IMG/VR virus record: IMGVR_UViG_3300044450_000310
Source: a virus
Length of the DNA: 64,000 bases
Direction: 5' to 3' (one strand)
Shown: piece by piece, positions 6,740 through 64,000 of the stretch
Numbering within the stretch: position 1 is the first letter of the stretch
Layout of the letters: the number at the start of each line of letters is the position of its first letter
The notes under the pieces: generated by a model
Database searches by the model: none
What the model was told of the DNA's origin: nothing
The model's input: the letters and a program-made list of their open reading frames with translations, nothing else
Translations under genes and position numbers: made by a program

Positions 6740-9700
6740 GGAGAATAAGAAGCAAGCTCTGTAATTTGCTTGAGTTCTCCACCAATTACCCAATGTAGTA
6801 ATAGTCTGTAATCGCCTCCCGCATCCTTAGTTGGATCACTCCAAATAAGCACCGCTTTATTTGTAGCATCATTAGGATCTACCACAGCAATACTTTCAAA
6901 GGCTCGGATATTAGAGGCATCAAAAGAAGTTTTAGTGATATGGGCCTTTGGAAGAATTTCATGTGCGTGAAGACTGTAGAAATCCCAATTCGCAAAACCT
7001 GTATATCCATCAGTATATATTTGAACTCTAAACTCATCGAAGGCTGGATCGGTAAAAAATACAACTGGAACAGTGAAATCAATGTATTGCCAAGCACCGG
7101 AAAATGATTGAGAGGTGCAGGCATCCAGTGACTTAATAGTTCCCCAAGTACCACCTGTCTTTCTAACTTGAATAGTTATAGTTAAATCAGATGAACCCGC
7201 AGAATTGGTTTTCATATAGATTCGATCAATTTTTATGTATCGACCAAGCGGTAAATCAGAAGTTAGTAAACCGCTTTGTCCCCATTGTATTATTAAAGGA
7301 CTACCACCATTGGTATTTGGTAACCCATCATCAACAATAGTATCAAATTCGGCTGTTTCTTGAATGGTATAATCATTCAGTACACCGTCTTCATCAGAGA
7401 TTTTAACCGCTTCATAGTCGGTGCCATCTCTATCCTCATCTTTGATAATAATTCTAGGATTATCGCCACCATGAATTTCTAAATCACCACGAACAAGCTT
7501 TTCAGAACTATTAGTTACGCCTTGCGCACCTACTTCTAAGCCACCAATGTAGGCTCTTTTAACTGAAACAACTCCAATTTTATCAAATGCCCAACCTATA
7601 GTACCAGGGTTAGTCATGTTTCCTGAACCATTAATTGTACCATTCCAATTGTCAGACTTCATTTGATTGGCTGAAAACGTAAATCCGTCCATGTCTTGAG
7701 TAAGCTCAGAAGCCACATCACCTACACTAACTTTTGAAGTGATCGATGTAGCATTTGCCACAATAGATGCCTCGGCAGTTACTAATCGACTATCAATACC
7801 ATCTACTTCAGTTTGGGTAGCTCTTAACCCGATATCGGTTGCATTCTGAGTGATGGAAGTCTCAGCCGTAGTTACTCTTCCATCTATGTTGGAAATATTA
7901 GTAACATTCGTTGCAATGTTTGTGGCATTGATTGAAATCGCAGAAGTATTACCAGTAACAGTGCCAGTTAGAGTATCTACCTCCGCTTGCGTAGCTCTTA
8001 GAGTAATGTCAGTTGCATTCTGAATAATCGAAGTCTCAGCAGTTATCAATCTTGTACCTATATCCGATACATCTGAAACTATTAATGCAATGGAAGCACT
8101 ATTTACTGAAATCTCTGCACGATTTACCCGAATCCCTTCCTCACTACCTTGAGTGATGGTATCAATCTCAAAAGCCAGTAATTGAATATTCTCCGCAGTC
8201 TGAGTGATCGATGTTTCCGCAACAGCTAATCTCCCATCGATACTGCTGATATCGCTTACATTGGTGGTAATGCCAGTCGCATTTACAGCAATTGAAGCTG
8301 TATTTGTCGCAACATCCCCTGAGATCGTATCAACTTGAGACTGATTTGCTTTAAGAAGGATATCCGAAGCATTTTGAGCAATCTCGGTAGTATGATTTGC
8401 AACAGTGCCCGAAATAGTATCTACTTCAGATTGATTAGCTTTTAAGGCTATATTTCCAGCATTTAAAACAATGGATGCTTCAGCCGAAGTAACACGACCT
8501 TCTATAGTATCAACTTCAGTCTGATTTGCCTTTAGTGCAATTGCACCAGCATTTACTAAGATATCAGCTTCAGTAGTCGTAACTCTTCCAGTGAGTGTAT
8601 CTACATCAGATTGTGAAGCCTTGAGAGCTATATCAGTCGCATTCTGAATTATGTTAGTTTCAGCAGAGTCTACACGTCCAGTTAAAGTATCGACTTCTGA
8701 CTGCTCTACTTTCGTAGCAATCTGATTAGCCTGTACTATTAATGTTGCTTCATTGGTTGTTACTCGACTTTCAACAAGATCTACATCTGAAGTCAATGCA
8801 CGAAGAGCAATTTGCTGAGAATTAACCTCAATGGATGCTTGGTTTTCTAAAACCCGTTCTTCATTGCCTTGAGTCACAATATCTAACTCTAGCGCCAATA
8901 GAGTGATGGAGCTTTGAGTTTGATTAATTGAAGTCTCTGCTGTAGATACTCTACCTTCCAGGATATCATAATCTGTCTGATTTACTTTTAACAGAATATT
9001 TGAAGCATTCACCGCAATTAAAGCCTCGGCATCGGTAATTCGCTGAGTCTCAATATCTAAATCTGATTGATTCGCTTTCAGTGCAATTTGAGTAGCATTT
9101 GCCGTGATGGAAGTCTCTGCCGTGGTTAATCGAGTATCGAGAATATCGACCGAAGATTGTGTAGCTCTCAGTGCAATTTCACCAGCATTCACTACAATTG
9201 AAGCTTCAGCCGTTGATACTCTACCTTCGATAGTATCTACTTCTGTCTGTGAAGCTTTCAAAGCAATCTGACCAGCATTCACTACAATCGAAGCCTCCGC
9301 AGAGTCTACACGTCCAGTTAAAGTATCAACCTCAGTTTGTGAGGCTTTCAAAGCAATCTGACCAGCGTTTACTAAGATATCAGCCTCGGCGGTAGTTACT
9401 CTAGTGTTTGTAGAGTTCAAACTTAACTGAGAAGCTTTTAGTGCAATATCATTAGAATTAACCGTGATGGATGCTTCCGCAGAGTCTACCCTGCCTTCAA
9501 GGGTATCCAAATCAGTTTGTGAAGCCTTTAATACGATCTGACCAGCTAATTGAATAATCGAAGTTTCATTGGCAGTTATTCGACCTGTCTGAGTATCTAA
9601 ATCTTCTTGTGAGGCTTTTAAAGCAATAGAATTTGCATTCTGCGTGATGGATGTTTCCGCACTGGATACCCGAACTTCAACCGCATCAAATACCGTTTGT

Positions 9701-60325: not shown

Positions 60326-60647
60326 ATATTCTCAGTTCTCTCCACTGCTTCACGCAGAAACACAATGGGTTTCCACGTCCGCTAGTAACTCGGTGCTCCA
60401 AGCCATTTTCAGATAAGGCTTTCAACTTTCCATCATTAATCAAGCGACGTATCGTTTTTGCTGGTATTCGCAACACTTCAGGTGCTCGACTAACTTTAAG
60501 TATCCAATACCCATTGATTTCCAATACTCGCTCAAAGTCTTTCACTTCACCAAGCTCATTCTTTACTGGCAGATCAACCAGTGCCATTTGATTGGTAATC
60601 TTTCTAGGTATTAATACTTCAGCTTGCAATTCGATCATCCTGGGCAC
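60324..60647 (-). CDS. Excisionase-like HTH protein
   Basis: LKVSRAPEVLRIPAKTIRRLINDGKLKA (HTH_17-like). Confidence 0.7.
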   Translation of the reverse strand: MPRMIELQAEVLIPRKITNQMALVDLPVKNELGEVKDFERVLEINGYWILKVSRAPEVLRIPAKTIRRLINDGKLKALSENGLEHRVTSGRGNPLCFCVKQWRELRI

Positions 60648-60716
60648 GCTCTAACACCCTCAGTTTTAGCTCAGAGTGTGTTATATTTTCTATTATTTTG
60701 CTGGCTTTTTGGATCA

Positions 60717-60748
60717 TTTAATTACTGTTTTTCTTTTACTTAGATTTG
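60717..60748 (+). promoter_or_regulatory. Candidate Bacteroidota-type promoter (TTTA-20 nt-TAGATTTG), antisense to cro
   Basis: Matches the TAnnTTTG -7 consensus; host sigma specificity unverified. Confidence 0.3.
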
Positions 60749-60777
60749 CATTTGACACCACTGTAAGGAGTTGCGCT

Positions 60778-61041
60778 CTAACCGGTCTTACTTAATAGTT
60801 GGGATTGATGCTTTTGGCGAAGCTCTAAGGCAGCAGCTTCCAGCTTTGATAATCGATCATTAGAAATGGCAGAATCATCATCATTATTTATCAAACGACT
60901 AATAGCTGTAGAAGTAGACTTAATTTTTTCTATTCCAGCTTCTTTACAGACATCAGAAAAAGAAAATTTATCTGAGTTAGCCCCCAACAAAGACCGAAGG
61001 TCTAAAGCCCTTTGTTTCTTTGGTTTTAAATCAAGACTCAC
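60778..61041 (-). CDS. Cro-like small HTH regulator
   Basis: FSFSDVCKEAGI..STSTAISRLIN; divergent from the cI-like gene. Confidence 0.6.
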   Translation of the reverse strand: MSLDLKPKKQRALDLRSLLGANSDKFSFSDVCKEAGIEKIKSTSTAISRLINNDDDSAISNDRLSKLEAAALELRQKHQSQLLSKTG

Positions 61042-61106
61042 TATATATTGACTTAGTTAATGTTAACATGACCAATGTACATACTTCACATACTTTTATC
61101 AACCAT

Positions 61107-61559
61107 ATGTTGAAAGAATTTGATAACTTTGCCGAAGCGTTTGCGTATGGAGTTGATTACTTAGGACTTAAACACGCTTCTATTTATGAAAAAATTGGGA
61201 TGGATAAGGGACAATTCAGTAATATTTATACTGGTGTCGTTAAAAATCCACAGTCTTCAACGCGGAAAAAGTTGACAGAATATGTTGATTTTGAGATAAA
61301 TAAAAATGGTGAATCTTGGCATTTATCTTTGCCAAACTCTCAAGTTAAAAATCAAGTTGCTGAACCAGCTGTTGAATACCGCACCCTCACAATGGAAGCG
61401 AAACGCGAATTATTGGACAGGGTAACCGATGATTTAAAAGAAGTAGTCTCAGACTATAAGGCCATTCGTAAAACTCGAATGCTAGAAGATGCAACACGAG
61501 AACTCACCTTCGATGGTATTGTTAAACGTCTTCAGGATATTATTAAAGAGCTAGATTAA
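61107..61559 (+). CDS. CI-like repressor (N-terminal XRE HTH)
   Basis: LKHASIYEKIGMDKGQFSNIYTG..NP; start uncertain (61020, 61068 or 61107). Confidence 0.7.
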   Translation: MLKEFDNFAEAFAYGVDYLGLKHASIYEKIGMDKGQFSNIYTGVVKNPQSSTRKKLTEYVDFEINKNGESWHLSLPNSQVKNQVAEPAVEYRTLTMEAKRELLDRVTDDLKEVVSDYKAIRKTRMLEDATRELTFDGIVKRLQDIIKELD

Positions 61560-61694
61560 TTTAACTTTTCACAAGTTTTCAACAATTTATTTTAAATTAC
61601 GTACATTATACTTAAGCACCTTCGGGGAACGTTCGATAAGAACTACGTGTACAAGACAAAAATTACTCTCTATTTGCAACCAAACTAACCAACC

Positions 61695-61916
61695 ATGAGC
61701 ACAGTTAAGAGCCATATCAAGTCATTTGGGAAAGGTCTGATTTTTGGAATAAACGAGCTTCTAGACATCGATATCAATTATCGCTACCCGGTTGAAGATG
61801 GAAAATCAATGATTGAAACCGATTCAATGGAAGCAATCAACAATGATATGCGCCGGGTATATGGCGATATTCATAAAGGCGTTGTAAAGTTCAAAAAAGA
61901 AGCTCACGCTGAATAG
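61695..61916 (+). CDS. Small hypothetical of the type found upstream of DUF2335 genes
   Basis: G...LLDI......TD.MEAI.NDM..V.GDI pattern (recollection). Confidence 0.6.
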   Translation: MSTVKSHIKSFGKGLIFGINELLDIDINYRYPVEDGKSMIETDSMEAINNDMRRVYGDIHKGVVKFKKEAHAE

Positions 61917-61981
61917 TGTCAACTGAAGTAGGCCATATCGATGATTTACCTGAAAATGAAAATTAAGGTGAACATCGTGCA

Positions 61982-62416
61982 ATGGTTTATACTGAAACTT
62001 ATTCTGGTCCTATTGCCCGCCCAAATAGCGTAAACGGCATAAACCAAACATATGTATTCACCGATGATTCAAATGAAATTTTTGGATACTACTGCATTTC
62101 ATCTGGAAGTATAACAGCTGACAAGCTCCCAAAGGGCTTCCCCTATGCACAAGTTCCAACGATTAAGCTCGGCCGACTGGCAGTTTCAATTGATCATTCC
62201 GGGAAAGGTATTGGACCTTTTTTATTAACCGATGCAATAGATAGAATTATTGATTTAGCTGATCAAGTTGGCATCTATTGCATAACAGTTGATGCCATTG
62301 ATGAAGAAAAAGTTAGCTTTTACTTACACCACAATTTTACACGATTAGAAGAAGATGGATTCGAATTATTCATGTCCATCGAAAAGGCGCGTTCTAGTAA
62401 AATTAGGAGTATTTAG
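61982..62416 (+). CDS. GNAT acetyltransferase (AtaT/TacT toxin-like), N-terminus atypical
   Basis: GYYCISSGSI, IKLGRLAV...GKGIG..LL.DA, VDA.D..FY...F. Confidence 0.85.
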   Translation: MVYTETYSGPIARPNSVNGINQTYVFTDDSNEIFGYYCISSGSITADKLPKGFPYAQVPTIKLGRLAVSIDHSGKGIGPFLLTDAIDRIIDLADQVGIYCITVDAIDEEKVSFYLHHNFTRLEEDGFELFMSIEKARSSKIRSI

Positions 62417-63371
62417 CAGTGATCTTATTTGGCCGGTTTAAATACTTTCTTACTCTATAACCAACAAATAAGAAGACAGCTAAACCCTGAATGATCCATT
62501 GTAACACCTTCTTAGTCTGTCTAGCTTTAGTTTGTTCAATTTTAGTCTCTAACCTTAAATAATCTTCTGATGCATTCTCAAAAAACACTTCATAGATTTT
62601 TGGTGAAGTCAGCATTAATATTTCTTCAGTTATAATCATCGCAGTTTCATAGTCTTTTTCTGCCTCAATGATTGAAGACTTCATTTCTAAAAACTCCAAT
62701 TTTGTAATCAAAACCGCGTTAGTAGTATCAACCTCATTGATATAGTATTTAGCTGCATTTAAGCTATCAACACTTAAAAAGTATTTTGCCAAATTTGTGC
62801 TATTCCTGTTTTGACGCTTGGTCTTTAAGTTAGAATCAGGATCTATTTTGTCGATGTAATAGTTTGCAGAATCTAAATTAGATATCCACCCATTTTTATC
62901 ACGCAATAATTTCCTCACTGATGCATAATTGTTGTGTGCTACGGCCTTCAAGGAAGGCATGTTATTTGGTATATCAATAACAATTCTTTCAAATAAAGAA
63001 TCTGATTTTTCAAGGTAGTCTAAATTTTTCAGCAGCTGTGCTTTTTTTAGTTGAACATCATAGTACGTGCCTAAATGTGTAAGCGAAAGAATATCTATTT
63101 TATTTATCTCATTATATCCTTTCTCATCGTTGTTATGGTCAATATTTGCACTTGCAACTAGGACTGTTGCATAAGCTAACCAATCACCTTTTACACCTAA
63201 ACTTGACAATCTTTCATAGGTGAAAGATGCAACAGAGTCGGAATAGTTAAAGTCATTGTATCTCTCTTGAATAAAAACATAGGTATCCTCAGCCTCTTCA
63301 TTTAGAAGTTGAGAATATCCACTAAAAGGAAGTAGACTAAGAATACCCAATATGATAAAAAACCGAATCAT
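62403..63371 (-). CDS. Exported TPR-like protein with C-terminal membrane anchor
   Basis: Signal peptide, helical repeats (AVAHNNYASV..NLDSANYY), TM WIIQGLAVFLFVGY, only about 15 residues after it. Confidence 0.75.
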   Translation of the reverse strand: MIRFFIILGILSLLPFSGYSQLLNEEAEDTYVFIQERYNDFNYSDSVASFTYERLSSLGVKGDWLAYATVLVASANIDHNNDEKGYNEINKIDILSLTHLGTYYDVQLKKAQLLKNLDYLEKSDSLFERIVIDIPNNMPSLKAVAHNNYASVRKLLRDKNGWISNLDSANYYIDKIDPDSNLKTKRQNRNSTNLAKYFLSVDSLNAAKYYINEVDTTNAVLITKLEFLEMKSSIIEAEKDYETAMIITEEILMLTSPKIYEVFFENASEDYLRLETKIEQTKARQTKKVLQWIIQGLAVFLFVGYRVRKYLNRPNKITAKYS

Positions 63372-63376
63372 GACAA

Positions 63377-63502
63377 TTAGGTGTTATTACCCCCACCCGG
63401 ACCACCACTTCCAGGATCATTGTCATCGTTGTTATCGCCTTCGTCGCTACCATCACCATTAGGTGAGTTTAACCGAAAATTGTCGAATTTAATTTTTTTC
63501 AT
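63377..63502 (-). CDS. 41-aa peptide (not in ORF track)
   Basis: Hand-translated MKKIKFDNFRLNSPNGDGSDEGDNNDDNDPGSGGPGGGNNT; stops 5 nt before the TPR start. Confidence 0.65.
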   Translation of the reverse strand: MKKIKFDNFRLNSPNGDGSDEGDNNDDNDPGSGGPGGGNNT

Positions 63503-63707
63503 AGCATAAATGTTTATAGTTAATATTTATTACCTTCACTTGTAAGACCACGCCCAAATGAAGTCCTTACAAAAAAAGTGAAATTTTCTGTAAGATGAAA
63601 TTATGTAGAGACTTAGTAGTCTTAACCCAAGTACATACACCCAATATAATTAAGAGTTCCTAATTAATTACTCTGAAGTTGAGAGTCACCCCGACTTATA
63701 AAATGAC

Positions 63708-63738
63708 TTTACAATGATTATTATGATAGATACTTTTG
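63708..63738 (+). promoter_or_regulatory. Candidate promoter TTTA-19 nt-TACTTTTG
   Basis: TAnnTTTG match 4 nt before ATG 63743, so near-leaderless if real. Confidence 0.3.
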
Positions 63739-63742
63739 CAGA

Positions 63743-63904
63743 ATGGCGCATTTTGAACAGACAAAACCAAAAGATATCATCATCTGGATTATTGGCTTAA
63801 TAATTATCACATTATTAGTAGCTTTGCCCGGAATGATCGATGATGTGCCTAGAGATAATTCAGAGCGATTCGATACGCACGATCAATACGATCCAGGATA
63901 CTAA
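63743..63904 (+). CDS. Small single-TM protein, 53 aa (not in ORF track)
   Basis: Hand-translated MAHFEQTKPKDIIIWIIGLIIITLLVALPGMIDDVPRDNSERFDTHDQYDPGY. Confidence 0.6.
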   Translation: MAHFEQTKPKDIIIWIIGLIIITLLVALPGMIDDVPRDNSERFDTHDQYDPGY

Positions 63905-63919
63905 CACACAAACAGAACA

Positions 63920-64000
63920 ATGGCCTCTCTTACTACAGCAAAGGGAGGTAGATATTGGCGAATTAAATTTTTCAATGCGAATAAACGCCCTAAAGAAAAG
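63920..64000 (+). CDS. Probable tyrosine integrase, N-terminal arm-binding fragment (truncated by window end)
   Basis: MASLTTAKGGRYWRIKFFNANKRPKEK resembles integrase N-termini; lysogeny-module position; only 27 codons visible. Confidence 0.5.
   Translation, partial: MASLTTAKGGRYWRIKFFNANKRPKEK

Follow-up and report, generated by a model that had tools for sequence, protein, structure and literature searches.

A peptide gene coupled to a gene for an exported TPR protein in Balneolales prophages: a candidate phage ligand–receptor cassette

Does the lysogeny region of a phage of double-membraned bacteria encode a small peptide together with a receptor for it? The question is raised by the virus record IMGVR_UViG_3300044450_000310, a stretch of 64,000 nucleotides (nt) hereafter called the window, in which an open reading frame (ORF) of 41 amino acids (aa) lies directly ahead of a gene for an exported tetratricopeptide repeat (TPR) protein. 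Peptide/TPR signalling that steers the choice between lysis and lysogeny is, to our knowledge, so far known from Gram-positive hosts only; the receptors of the Gram-positive systems are intracellular and their peptides are imported by Opp. From sequence comparison and structure modelling, we tentatively read the two genes, with slightly less than even confidence, as a conserved unit of Balneolales prophages that encodes a cognate ligand–receptor pair. The cassette and the promoter-like elements associated with it comprise the following features.

63377..63502, minus strand: leaderless peptide ORF of 41 aa, with an N-terminal motif, an acidic Asp/Asn core and a Gly/Pro-rich tail
62403..63371, minus strand: TPR protein of 322 aa (from the family build, TPR_12 matches in homologues and the AlphaFold2 fold)
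about 63312–63371, minus strand: signal peptide of the TPR protein, residues 1–20
about 62508–63311, minus strand: TPR ectodomain, residues about 21–288
about 62457–62507, minus strand: transmembrane helix of the TPR protein, residues about 289–305
62406–62456, minus strand: basic tail of 17 aa at the C-terminus of the TPR protein
63542..63571, minus strand: promoter-like element TGTAAGGACT-N14-TCTTAC, about 40 nt ahead of the start codon of the peptide gene
60762..60791, plus strand: second copy of the promoter-like element, inside a divergent ORF in the cro position and aimed at the cI-like gene

A preliminary description of the window, made from its letters alone, had noted that the 41-aa ORF ends 5 nt before the 322-aa ORF; the coordinates agree (peptide stop at 63377–63379, TPR ATG at 63371) and the arrangement recurs in four other genomes. 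We entered the genomes from one NCBI-derived homologue in a Balneola metagenome-assembled genome and searched its order with a family profile. The TPR gene is present in 5 of 283 Balneolales genomes (G001, G085, G443, G403 and G463), and the neighbourhood comparison suggested in that description recovered the pair in the first four, where an ORF of similar build (36–55 aa) lies directly upstream. At all peptide–TPR loci the peptide stop abuts or overlaps the TPR start (a gap of 0–5 nt or an overlap). A sample of 401 genomes from the phylum returned two close matches (E ≤ 1e-88), both in Balneolales genomes already found, and five further marginal matches inside much longer TPR proteins, and searches for related loci in viral contigs, in metagenome contigs and, with P0004 as the query, in genome contigs found nothing. 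The position is also shared at the prophage loci with readable flanks: in the window and in the G085, G443, G403 and G463 prophages, the TPR gene and a cI-like gene converge, and the TPR gene lies between the latter and either the integrase or a prophage-edge tRNA, which presumably holds the attachment (att) site.

Alignment A3 comprises six peptide copies from five loci (window, G001 twice, G085, G443 and G403). All six share the motif [FY]-x-(L)-N-x-P-x-G-[DE], followed by an acidic stretch and a Gly/Pro-rich tail; the window peptide begins MKKIKFDNFRL and its motif reads F-R-L-N-S-P-N-G-D, and the G403 peptide contains PPPPP. The peptides are 32–44% identical across phages and their TPR proteins 24–30%. 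By inspection, a hydrophobic or signal segment is absent from all six. The peptide belongs to no NCBIfam, Pfam or PHROG family and has no look-alike beyond chance in the Atlas; its sole relative in a set of 5.8 billion proteins is the G403 copy, which public records list as a protein. With the peptide profile, the 283 Balneolales genomes gave no copies away from TPR genes, one weak match excepted.

That match is a 41-aa ORF (…KYNMPDGTGGNGGG…) in genome G049 (L022:1483–1608, E 0.0011), divergent from a gene for a 998-aa protein with a signal peptide, TPRs and a CHAT domain (L025:6260–9256) and not accompanied by the promoter motif. It may represent a host-encoded relative of the pair or mere coincidence, and we treat it as a weak lead only.

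A tandem duplication in G001 bears on whether the small ORF is a gene. Promoter, peptide gene and TPR codons 1–20 occur there in duplicate (L001:9244–9905), so that a broken TPR stub follows the second peptide gene, and a third motif copy lies at 9244–9273. The two peptide paralogues differ by 5, 9 and 21 changes at codon positions 1, 2 and 3, respectively, with 14 codons changed only synonymously and in-frame indels of 48 and 9 nt, and their 76-nt upstream regions are identical at 70 of 76 positions. The excess at third positions, the synonymous codons and the in-frame indels together indicate that the peptide ORF is a real, translated and constrained gene.

The window TPR protein has no Pfam, NCBIfam or PHROG match of its own. 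An exhaustive homologue search of 1.84 billion representatives assembled a family of 15 representatives (207–350 aa), the closest of which (P0001) is 54% identical to the window protein and the others 24–31%. Members with an intact N-terminus align over their full length and consist of a hydrophobic segment ending in [AG]-Q, an α-helical body, a C-terminal hydrophobic helix and a short basic tail. TPR_12 is matched by eight of the 15 members (best E 2.3e-7). The AlphaFold2 model computed with the 15-row alignment reaches a mean predicted local distance difference test (pLDDT) value of 91.2, compared with 40 for a single-sequence model, and is an all-α TPR superhelix in which helix 261–311 runs continuously into the transmembrane segment. 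Foldseek matches it best to LGN and kinesin light chain, in their peptide-binding TPR domains (TM-score about 0.6). Signal peptidase I of Bacteroidota usually cleaves at [AG]-Q (the 'Q-rule'), and the N-terminal segment ends at such a site; we therefore place the TPR domain in the periplasm, anchored in the inner membrane by the C-terminal helix.

The signal peptide, the TPR-like helices, the single C-terminal transmembrane helix and the missing output domain that the preliminary description had deduced were thus all borne out by the family build, the TPR_12 matches and the model. It had also allowed that homologues might prove to be host sensors with kinase or helix-turn-helix (HTH) tails; none of the 15 family members has one, and no kinase, HTH, DNA-binding or enzymatic output domain occurs in any of them. 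The cytoplasmic tails measure 16–32 aa in the four genomic members from which they were read off and are similarly short across the family alignment. A search among longer relatives gave one marginal match only, to a TPR-cyclase (E 4.3e-4), and the structural look-alikes include Bacteroidota TPR-LuxR and TPR-SpoIIE proteins. The ectodomain is of the sensor type, but the family is without an output domain. In a number of homologues the short tail on the cytoplasmic side contains an acidic [DE]-[DE]-F-I-S-[DE] motif, perhaps for docking a partner in the cytoplasm; the window protein has a degenerate version of it (…ITAKYS). The string YLNRP in the window tail is identical to one in the G001 peptides, a match that is probably due to chance since the other TPR-protein tails do not have it.

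Structure prediction connects the two gene products. We co-folded the ectodomain (residues 22–285, 15-row alignment) with the peptide (6-row alignment), as had been suggested, and the model supports binding: the interface score ipSAE has a median of 0.87 (runs 0.87, 0.88 and 0.87), compared with 0.00 for the best of three controls, which included neither a scrambled peptide nor a foreign TPR. Among solved complexes, 58 of 80 attain the mark thus passed, and among mismatched pairs 2 of 110 do so; this calibration is only rough here, with custom alignments in use. Contacts agree between runs to at least 63%, with a partner pLDDT of at least 55. In the model, peptide residues 20–35, which cover the acidic core and the first part of the Gly-rich tail, run along the concave TPR face and contact residues that include the conserved polar D63, D105, N147, N148 and N193. 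We therefore predict that the peptide binds the TPR groove. The conserved N-terminal motif of the peptide falls outside the confident interface, which suggests that it has another role, such as export or processing. On these sequence and modelling data, the peptides stand as a new putative small-protein family with a strongly predicted partner.

The pair also appears to share a promoter type with genes of the host. All six peptide copies are preceded by TGTAAGGAAT-N14-TCT[AT]AC with fixed spacing; in an alignment of the six upstream regions, the upstream element TTTTGTAAGGAAT, 14 nt and TCT[AT]AC sit about 30–45 nt before the peptide ATG. The window holds exactly two copies at up to two mismatches, against a mean of 0.19 in shuffled sequence (0 of 100 shuffles reach two). 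The second copy lies inside the divergent cro-position ORF and faces the cI-like gene, and the G443 prophage has an analogous copy (L014:11686–11715, minus strand) 345 nt upstream of its cI-like gene, again inside a divergent cro-position ORF. The window and G443, otherwise unrelated prophages, therefore both carry a repressor-directed copy in a geometry like that of lambda P_RE, which argues for a common host-sigma promoter type of cassette and repressor gene in at least two phages.

In five host genomes the exact motif occurs at 23 sites (2–8 per genome), whereas a reversed control gives none; at up to one mismatch there are 5–25 sites per genome and 0–1 for the control. Nearly all sites examined are in sense orientation shortly before a gene. 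According to NCBIfam, the genes downstream encode YifB/ComM (four genomes), ComEC/Rec2 (three), RecA (two), SSB (two), RadC and RecF, as well as integron integrases (three genomes), IS200-family transposases and four-helix-bundle proteins. The host loci concerned (L027–L076 in G001, G085, G403, G443 and G463) also include GIY-YIG-like genes. This set looks like a competence-type or DNA-damage-type alternative-sigma regulon, and we found no description of such a regulon in Balneolales. We infer that the motif is the target promoter of a host alternative sigma factor of the extracytoplasmic function (ECF)-like kind; scans for sigma-70-type promoters remained at chance level. The motif link makes the host regulon and its inducing signal directly testable.

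A candidate for the switch of this regulon is encoded between ppk and scpA, where in three genomes the motif separates a sigma-like gene (181 aa) from a gene for a membrane protein of 266–270 aa.

L034:636–2077 (G443): sigma-like gene, motif, TPR membrane-protein gene
L025:2354–3779 (G049): sigma-like gene, motif, TPR membrane-protein gene
L053 (G403): sigma-like gene, motif, TPR membrane-protein gene

Of the 283 genomes of the order, 258 have the sigma-like gene, whose product matches Sigma70_r2 below threshold (E 0.0024). The membrane protein has a C-terminal TPR domain after a predicted membrane segment and would expose that domain to the periplasm. The two are a candidate sigma/anti-sigma pair. 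The arrangement resembles that of ECF sigma promoters in that the motif is bipartite, has a fixed spacing, stands sense-oriented before genes, occurs far above chance and has a copy beside a sigma-like/anti-sigma-like gene pair, the sigma assignment being based on the sub-threshold match. The likeness to lambda P_RE lies in the copy directed at the repressor gene across the cro-position gene, antisense to the latter; P_RE is activated by the phage protein CII, whereas here the activator would be a host sigma factor.

We propose a scheme in which the first gene would yield a peptide of 36–55 aa without a secretion signal, and the translationally coupled second gene a product that would be exported by Sec, held in the inner membrane by its C-terminal helix and turned with its TPR solenoid toward the periplasm, leaving about 17–30 residues in the cytoplasm. 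The concave groove of the TPR domain would receive the acidic core of the peptide. The operon would be read from the ECF-like promoter type that the host uses for DNA-uptake and recombination genes, and in the window phage and one other the same promoter type would point at the repressor gene. The N-terminal motif of the peptide might act as an export or processing tag, and the core could gain the periplasm through a host exporter or, after lysis, by peptide uptake across the outer membrane. The liganded receptor could then act by contacts with membrane proteins, for example with the TPR-bearing anti-sigma-like protein, and might thereby tune the sigma factor behind transcription of cassette and repressor gene alike, an arbitrium-like logic with different parts. 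If the cassette signals, it would show how peptide communication can be built in the double-membraned cell of Bacteroidota (Balneolales).

The circuit as a whole, that is, extracytoplasmic peptide–TPR communication in a diderm with an exported or lysis-released peptide, a receptor that modulates an ECF-like sigma/anti-sigma pair, autoinduction and lysogeny favoured at high peptide concentration, seems unlikely to us at present. Were it true, it would be an arbitrium-like decision made from unrelated parts, outside Firmicutes and tied to the DNA-uptake and recombination regulon of the host. The idea of a diderm peptide-sensing module that influences lysogeny, put forward in the preliminary description, consequently survives in part: the conserved pair, its lysogeny position, the co-fold and the promoter type common to cassette and repressor gene speak for it, and the peptide without an export signal and the receptor without an output domain against it.

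Several observations weigh against a cognate ligand–receptor pair. The G463 prophage has the TPR gene without the peptide and without the promoter motif, the receptor lacks an output domain, and the repressor-directed motif copy is found in only two of the five prophages, being absent in G085 and G403. The co-fold pass may reflect likeness, TPR–peptide complexes being common among solved structures, and an acidic disordered peptide might fit any such TPR groove; conservation at the interface residues does not significantly exceed that elsewhere in the domain (Mann–Whitney p = 0.064). The chief difficulty is one of topology: a hydrophobic signal is missing from the peptide and no exporter gene lies nearby, yet the TPR domain is extracytoplasmic. 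Bacteroidota import oligopeptides across the outer membrane. Signal-less pheromones that are exported by host ABC systems exist, namely SHP and PrgQ via PptAB (PMC10075063).

The G463 locus differs in further details. In the place of the peptide, 130 nt upstream of the TPR gene and behind a hairpin, it has a gene for a 63-aa lipoprotein with an acidic, Pro-rich tail (L016:9655–9846). We considered this lipoprotein as a peptide homologue and rejected it, as the two are not homologous and have the acidic tail alone in common. A GTGTAAC...GTTACA palindrome precedes the TPR gene where the sigma motif is absent, and a gene for a 293-aa protein with a peptidoglycan-binding domain (L016:10976–11857) stands between the TPR and cI-like genes.

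Among known systems, the RRNPP/arbitrium group of Firmicutes and their phages (AimR–AimP, Rap–Phr, PlcR–PapR, Rgg–SHP) is the closest in plan: a small peptide gene lies beside that of a 250–500-aa TPR protein, the location is a phage lysogeny module, and the peptide is predicted in the TPR groove. Held against the five-point RRNPP signature (PMC10075063), the cassette agrees on points 1, 3, 4 and 5 and departs on point 2, a Sec signal on the peptide. It has the adjacent propeptide gene of 10–100 aa (41 aa with a 5-nt gap, and in four other genomes) and a receptor within the size range (322 aa), the support for peptide binding being the co-fold. RRNPP/arbitrium receptors, however, are intracellular and have an HTH (or phosphatase) output, whereas the cassette receptor is exported, membrane-anchored and without such an output; their propeptides have a Sec or an SHP/PrgQ-type PptAB signal, which the cassette peptides lack. 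Further differences are the diderm host and the order of the genes, the peptide gene being the first and translationally coupled. Pfam, NCBIfam and PHROG reveal no detectable sequence relationship of the receptor to AimR, Rap, PlcR or Rgg. Because the receptor is exported, the HTH is absent and the peptide has no secretion signal, the cassette is not a member of this group. The one-component sensors of Bacteroidota that combine a signal peptide, TPRs and a transmembrane helix with LuxR/GerE, SpoIIE/PP2C, cyclase or kinase tails resemble the cassette receptor in their TPR_12-like ectodomain and topology; the cassette family, in contrast, ends 17–30 residues past the membrane helix, and the sequence link to these sensors is the one marginal match. 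We accordingly read the cassette as a new kind of phage peptide/receptor module, the output of which is a proposal.

The alternative that survives best, although we hold it to be doubtful, is protection of the lysogen envelope. The TPR protein would bind a periplasmic component of the host or of an incoming phage and block DNA entry, in superinfection exclusion, anti-transformation or both, with the peptide as an accessory such as a groove plug or an assembly factor; a block of transformation would spare the prophage from curing by natural transformation. The integrase/att–repressor slot in which the gene resides holds exclusion genes in Gram-positive temperate phages. In Ltp of the Streptococcus thermophilus phage TP-J34 and Sie2009 of lactococcal phages, the same slot likewise has an extracytoplasmic, membrane-tethered product, and the cassette TPR protein is presumably made in the lysogen. 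Ltp is described as a surface-exposed, membrane-anchored exclusion protein of a temperate phage (PMC3952083), and antagonism of competence by mobile elements is reported (PMC12378983, PMC4774983). The promoter type common with comEC, comM, ssb, recA and radC would fit the timing of DNA uptake, and G463 retains the TPR gene without the peptide.

Envelope protection leaves unexplained, however, the strict conservation of the peptide, its coding constraint and translational coupling, and the predicted filling of the groove. The TPR protein has no similarity to known exclusion proteins in Pfam, NCBIfam, PHROG or fold searches; for Ltp and Sie, homology and fold likeness are both lacking, with PHROG and Pfam blank and fold matches to generic TPRs only. 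The cassette also differs from these two in its TPR solenoid fold, its anchoring by a C-terminal helix instead of a lipid and its conserved partner peptide. Even an exclusion or anti-transformation device would mean that prophages plug lysogeny genes into a host alternative-sigma regulon (recA, ssb, comM, comEC, radC).

We think it improbable that the small ORF is a regulatory upstream ORF that controls TPR synthesis, its product being functionless and the TPR protein acting alone. Such an ORF would account for the abutting or overlapping stop and start codons at all loci, and Gly/Pro-rich stretches such as the PPPPP of G403 can slow ribosomes. It would not account for the retention of the N-terminal motif and the acidic, Gly-rich build at an identity (32–44%) above that of the TPR proteins (24–30%), for the concentration of paralogue substitutions at third positions or for the high co-fold score.

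The chances seem poorer still for a decoy receptor, in which the phage TPR would titrate a periplasmic signal of the host, for example a ligand of the TPR-bearing anti-sigma-like protein. A host membrane protein with a C-terminal TPR does lie beside the sigma-like gene (G443, G403 and G049), with the promoter motif directly upstream of its own gene. The two TPRs, however, are not specifically related (hhalign probability 9.7%), which also left unsupported the idea that the phage TPR mimics the anti-sigma-like one; the phage encodes its own predicted ligand; and the decoy for a host peptide envisaged in the preliminary description finds no host-encoded peptide of the family outside the cassette, the weak G049 match excepted.

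We reject as most improbable of all the view, also raised at the outset, that a host TPR sensor was captured and truncated by the GNAT cassette, for although the TPR and GNAT genes overlap convergently by 14 nt and Bacteroidota proteins with a signal peptide, TPRs, a transmembrane helix and LuxR, SpoIIE or cyclase tails exist (the structural look-alikes and the marginal match at E 4.3e-4), the G085 prophage without GNAT encodes a 324-aa protein that ends alike, the 15 representatives, all of the same build, and the five genomic homologues are all 207–353 aa long, and the window tail ...KYS resembles the G463 tail ...AYS.

The cassette is flanked in the window by the following genes.

61020..61559, plus strand: cI-like repressor candidate of 179 aa (longest ORF), convergent with the cassette
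61695..62416, plus strand: 73-aa ORF and GNAT acetyltransferase, context outside the cassette, between the cI-like and TPR genes
63743..63904, plus strand: 53-aa ORF with a single transmembrane segment and a PRDNxER motif, upstream of the integrase
63917..64000, plus strand: N-terminus of the integrase, cut off by the window end

The placement of an AT-rich pair between the cI/GNAT genes and the integrase-like gene is confirmed by these coordinates and by the G+C content, which is 0.347 across 62001–64000 and about 0.40 in the remaining window, and the 14-nt convergent overlap with the GNAT ORF by the ORF coordinates. Elsewhere the window carries tailed-phage genes (terminase, portal, tail proteins and exonuclease, together with a Tad2-like protein and a C5 methylase). 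A phage collection searched with the window returned no match, and an Rfam scan of 60500–64000 gave none. We read the window phage as a temperate phage of Balneolales hosts, which fits the finding of cassette relatives in Balneolales genomes.

The window cI-like protein has no Pfam match and is 27.7% identical to a 170-aa protein at the equivalent position of the G085 prophage; the positional equivalents of its gene encode 150–179 aa, one of them matching Phage_CI_repr (6.8e-7) and others HTH_3 weakly. The G085 prophage mirrors the window gene for gene, minus the GNAT cassette, and its TPR protein has 324 aa. Because it has no GNAT gene and yet a TPR protein of this length, the GNAT genes are an insertion beside an intact TPR gene. 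The GNAT ORF (61982–62416, plus strand) matches the acetyltransferase family phrog_1758 (3.9e-22) and meets the TPR ORF tail to tail; it and the 73-aa ORF are missing from the G085, G443 and G403 prophage layouts and look like an inserted toxin–antitoxin-like cassette. The 73-aa ORF itself has a weak match to phrog_23198.

The N-terminus of the window integrase resembles those of the G085 and G463 integrases, the former of which, at the same position, matches Phage_integrase weakly, under the curated cut-off. The 53-aa ORF has a positional homologue in the G085 prophage (L005:2908–3081, BLASTP E 3e-5), so that in both a small ORF of 53–57 aa with a single transmembrane segment and the common motif D-x-P-R-D-N-x-E-R precedes the integrase. 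The G001 locus, finally, adjoins an RHS-type toxin C-terminus and immunity-like genes at the contig end.

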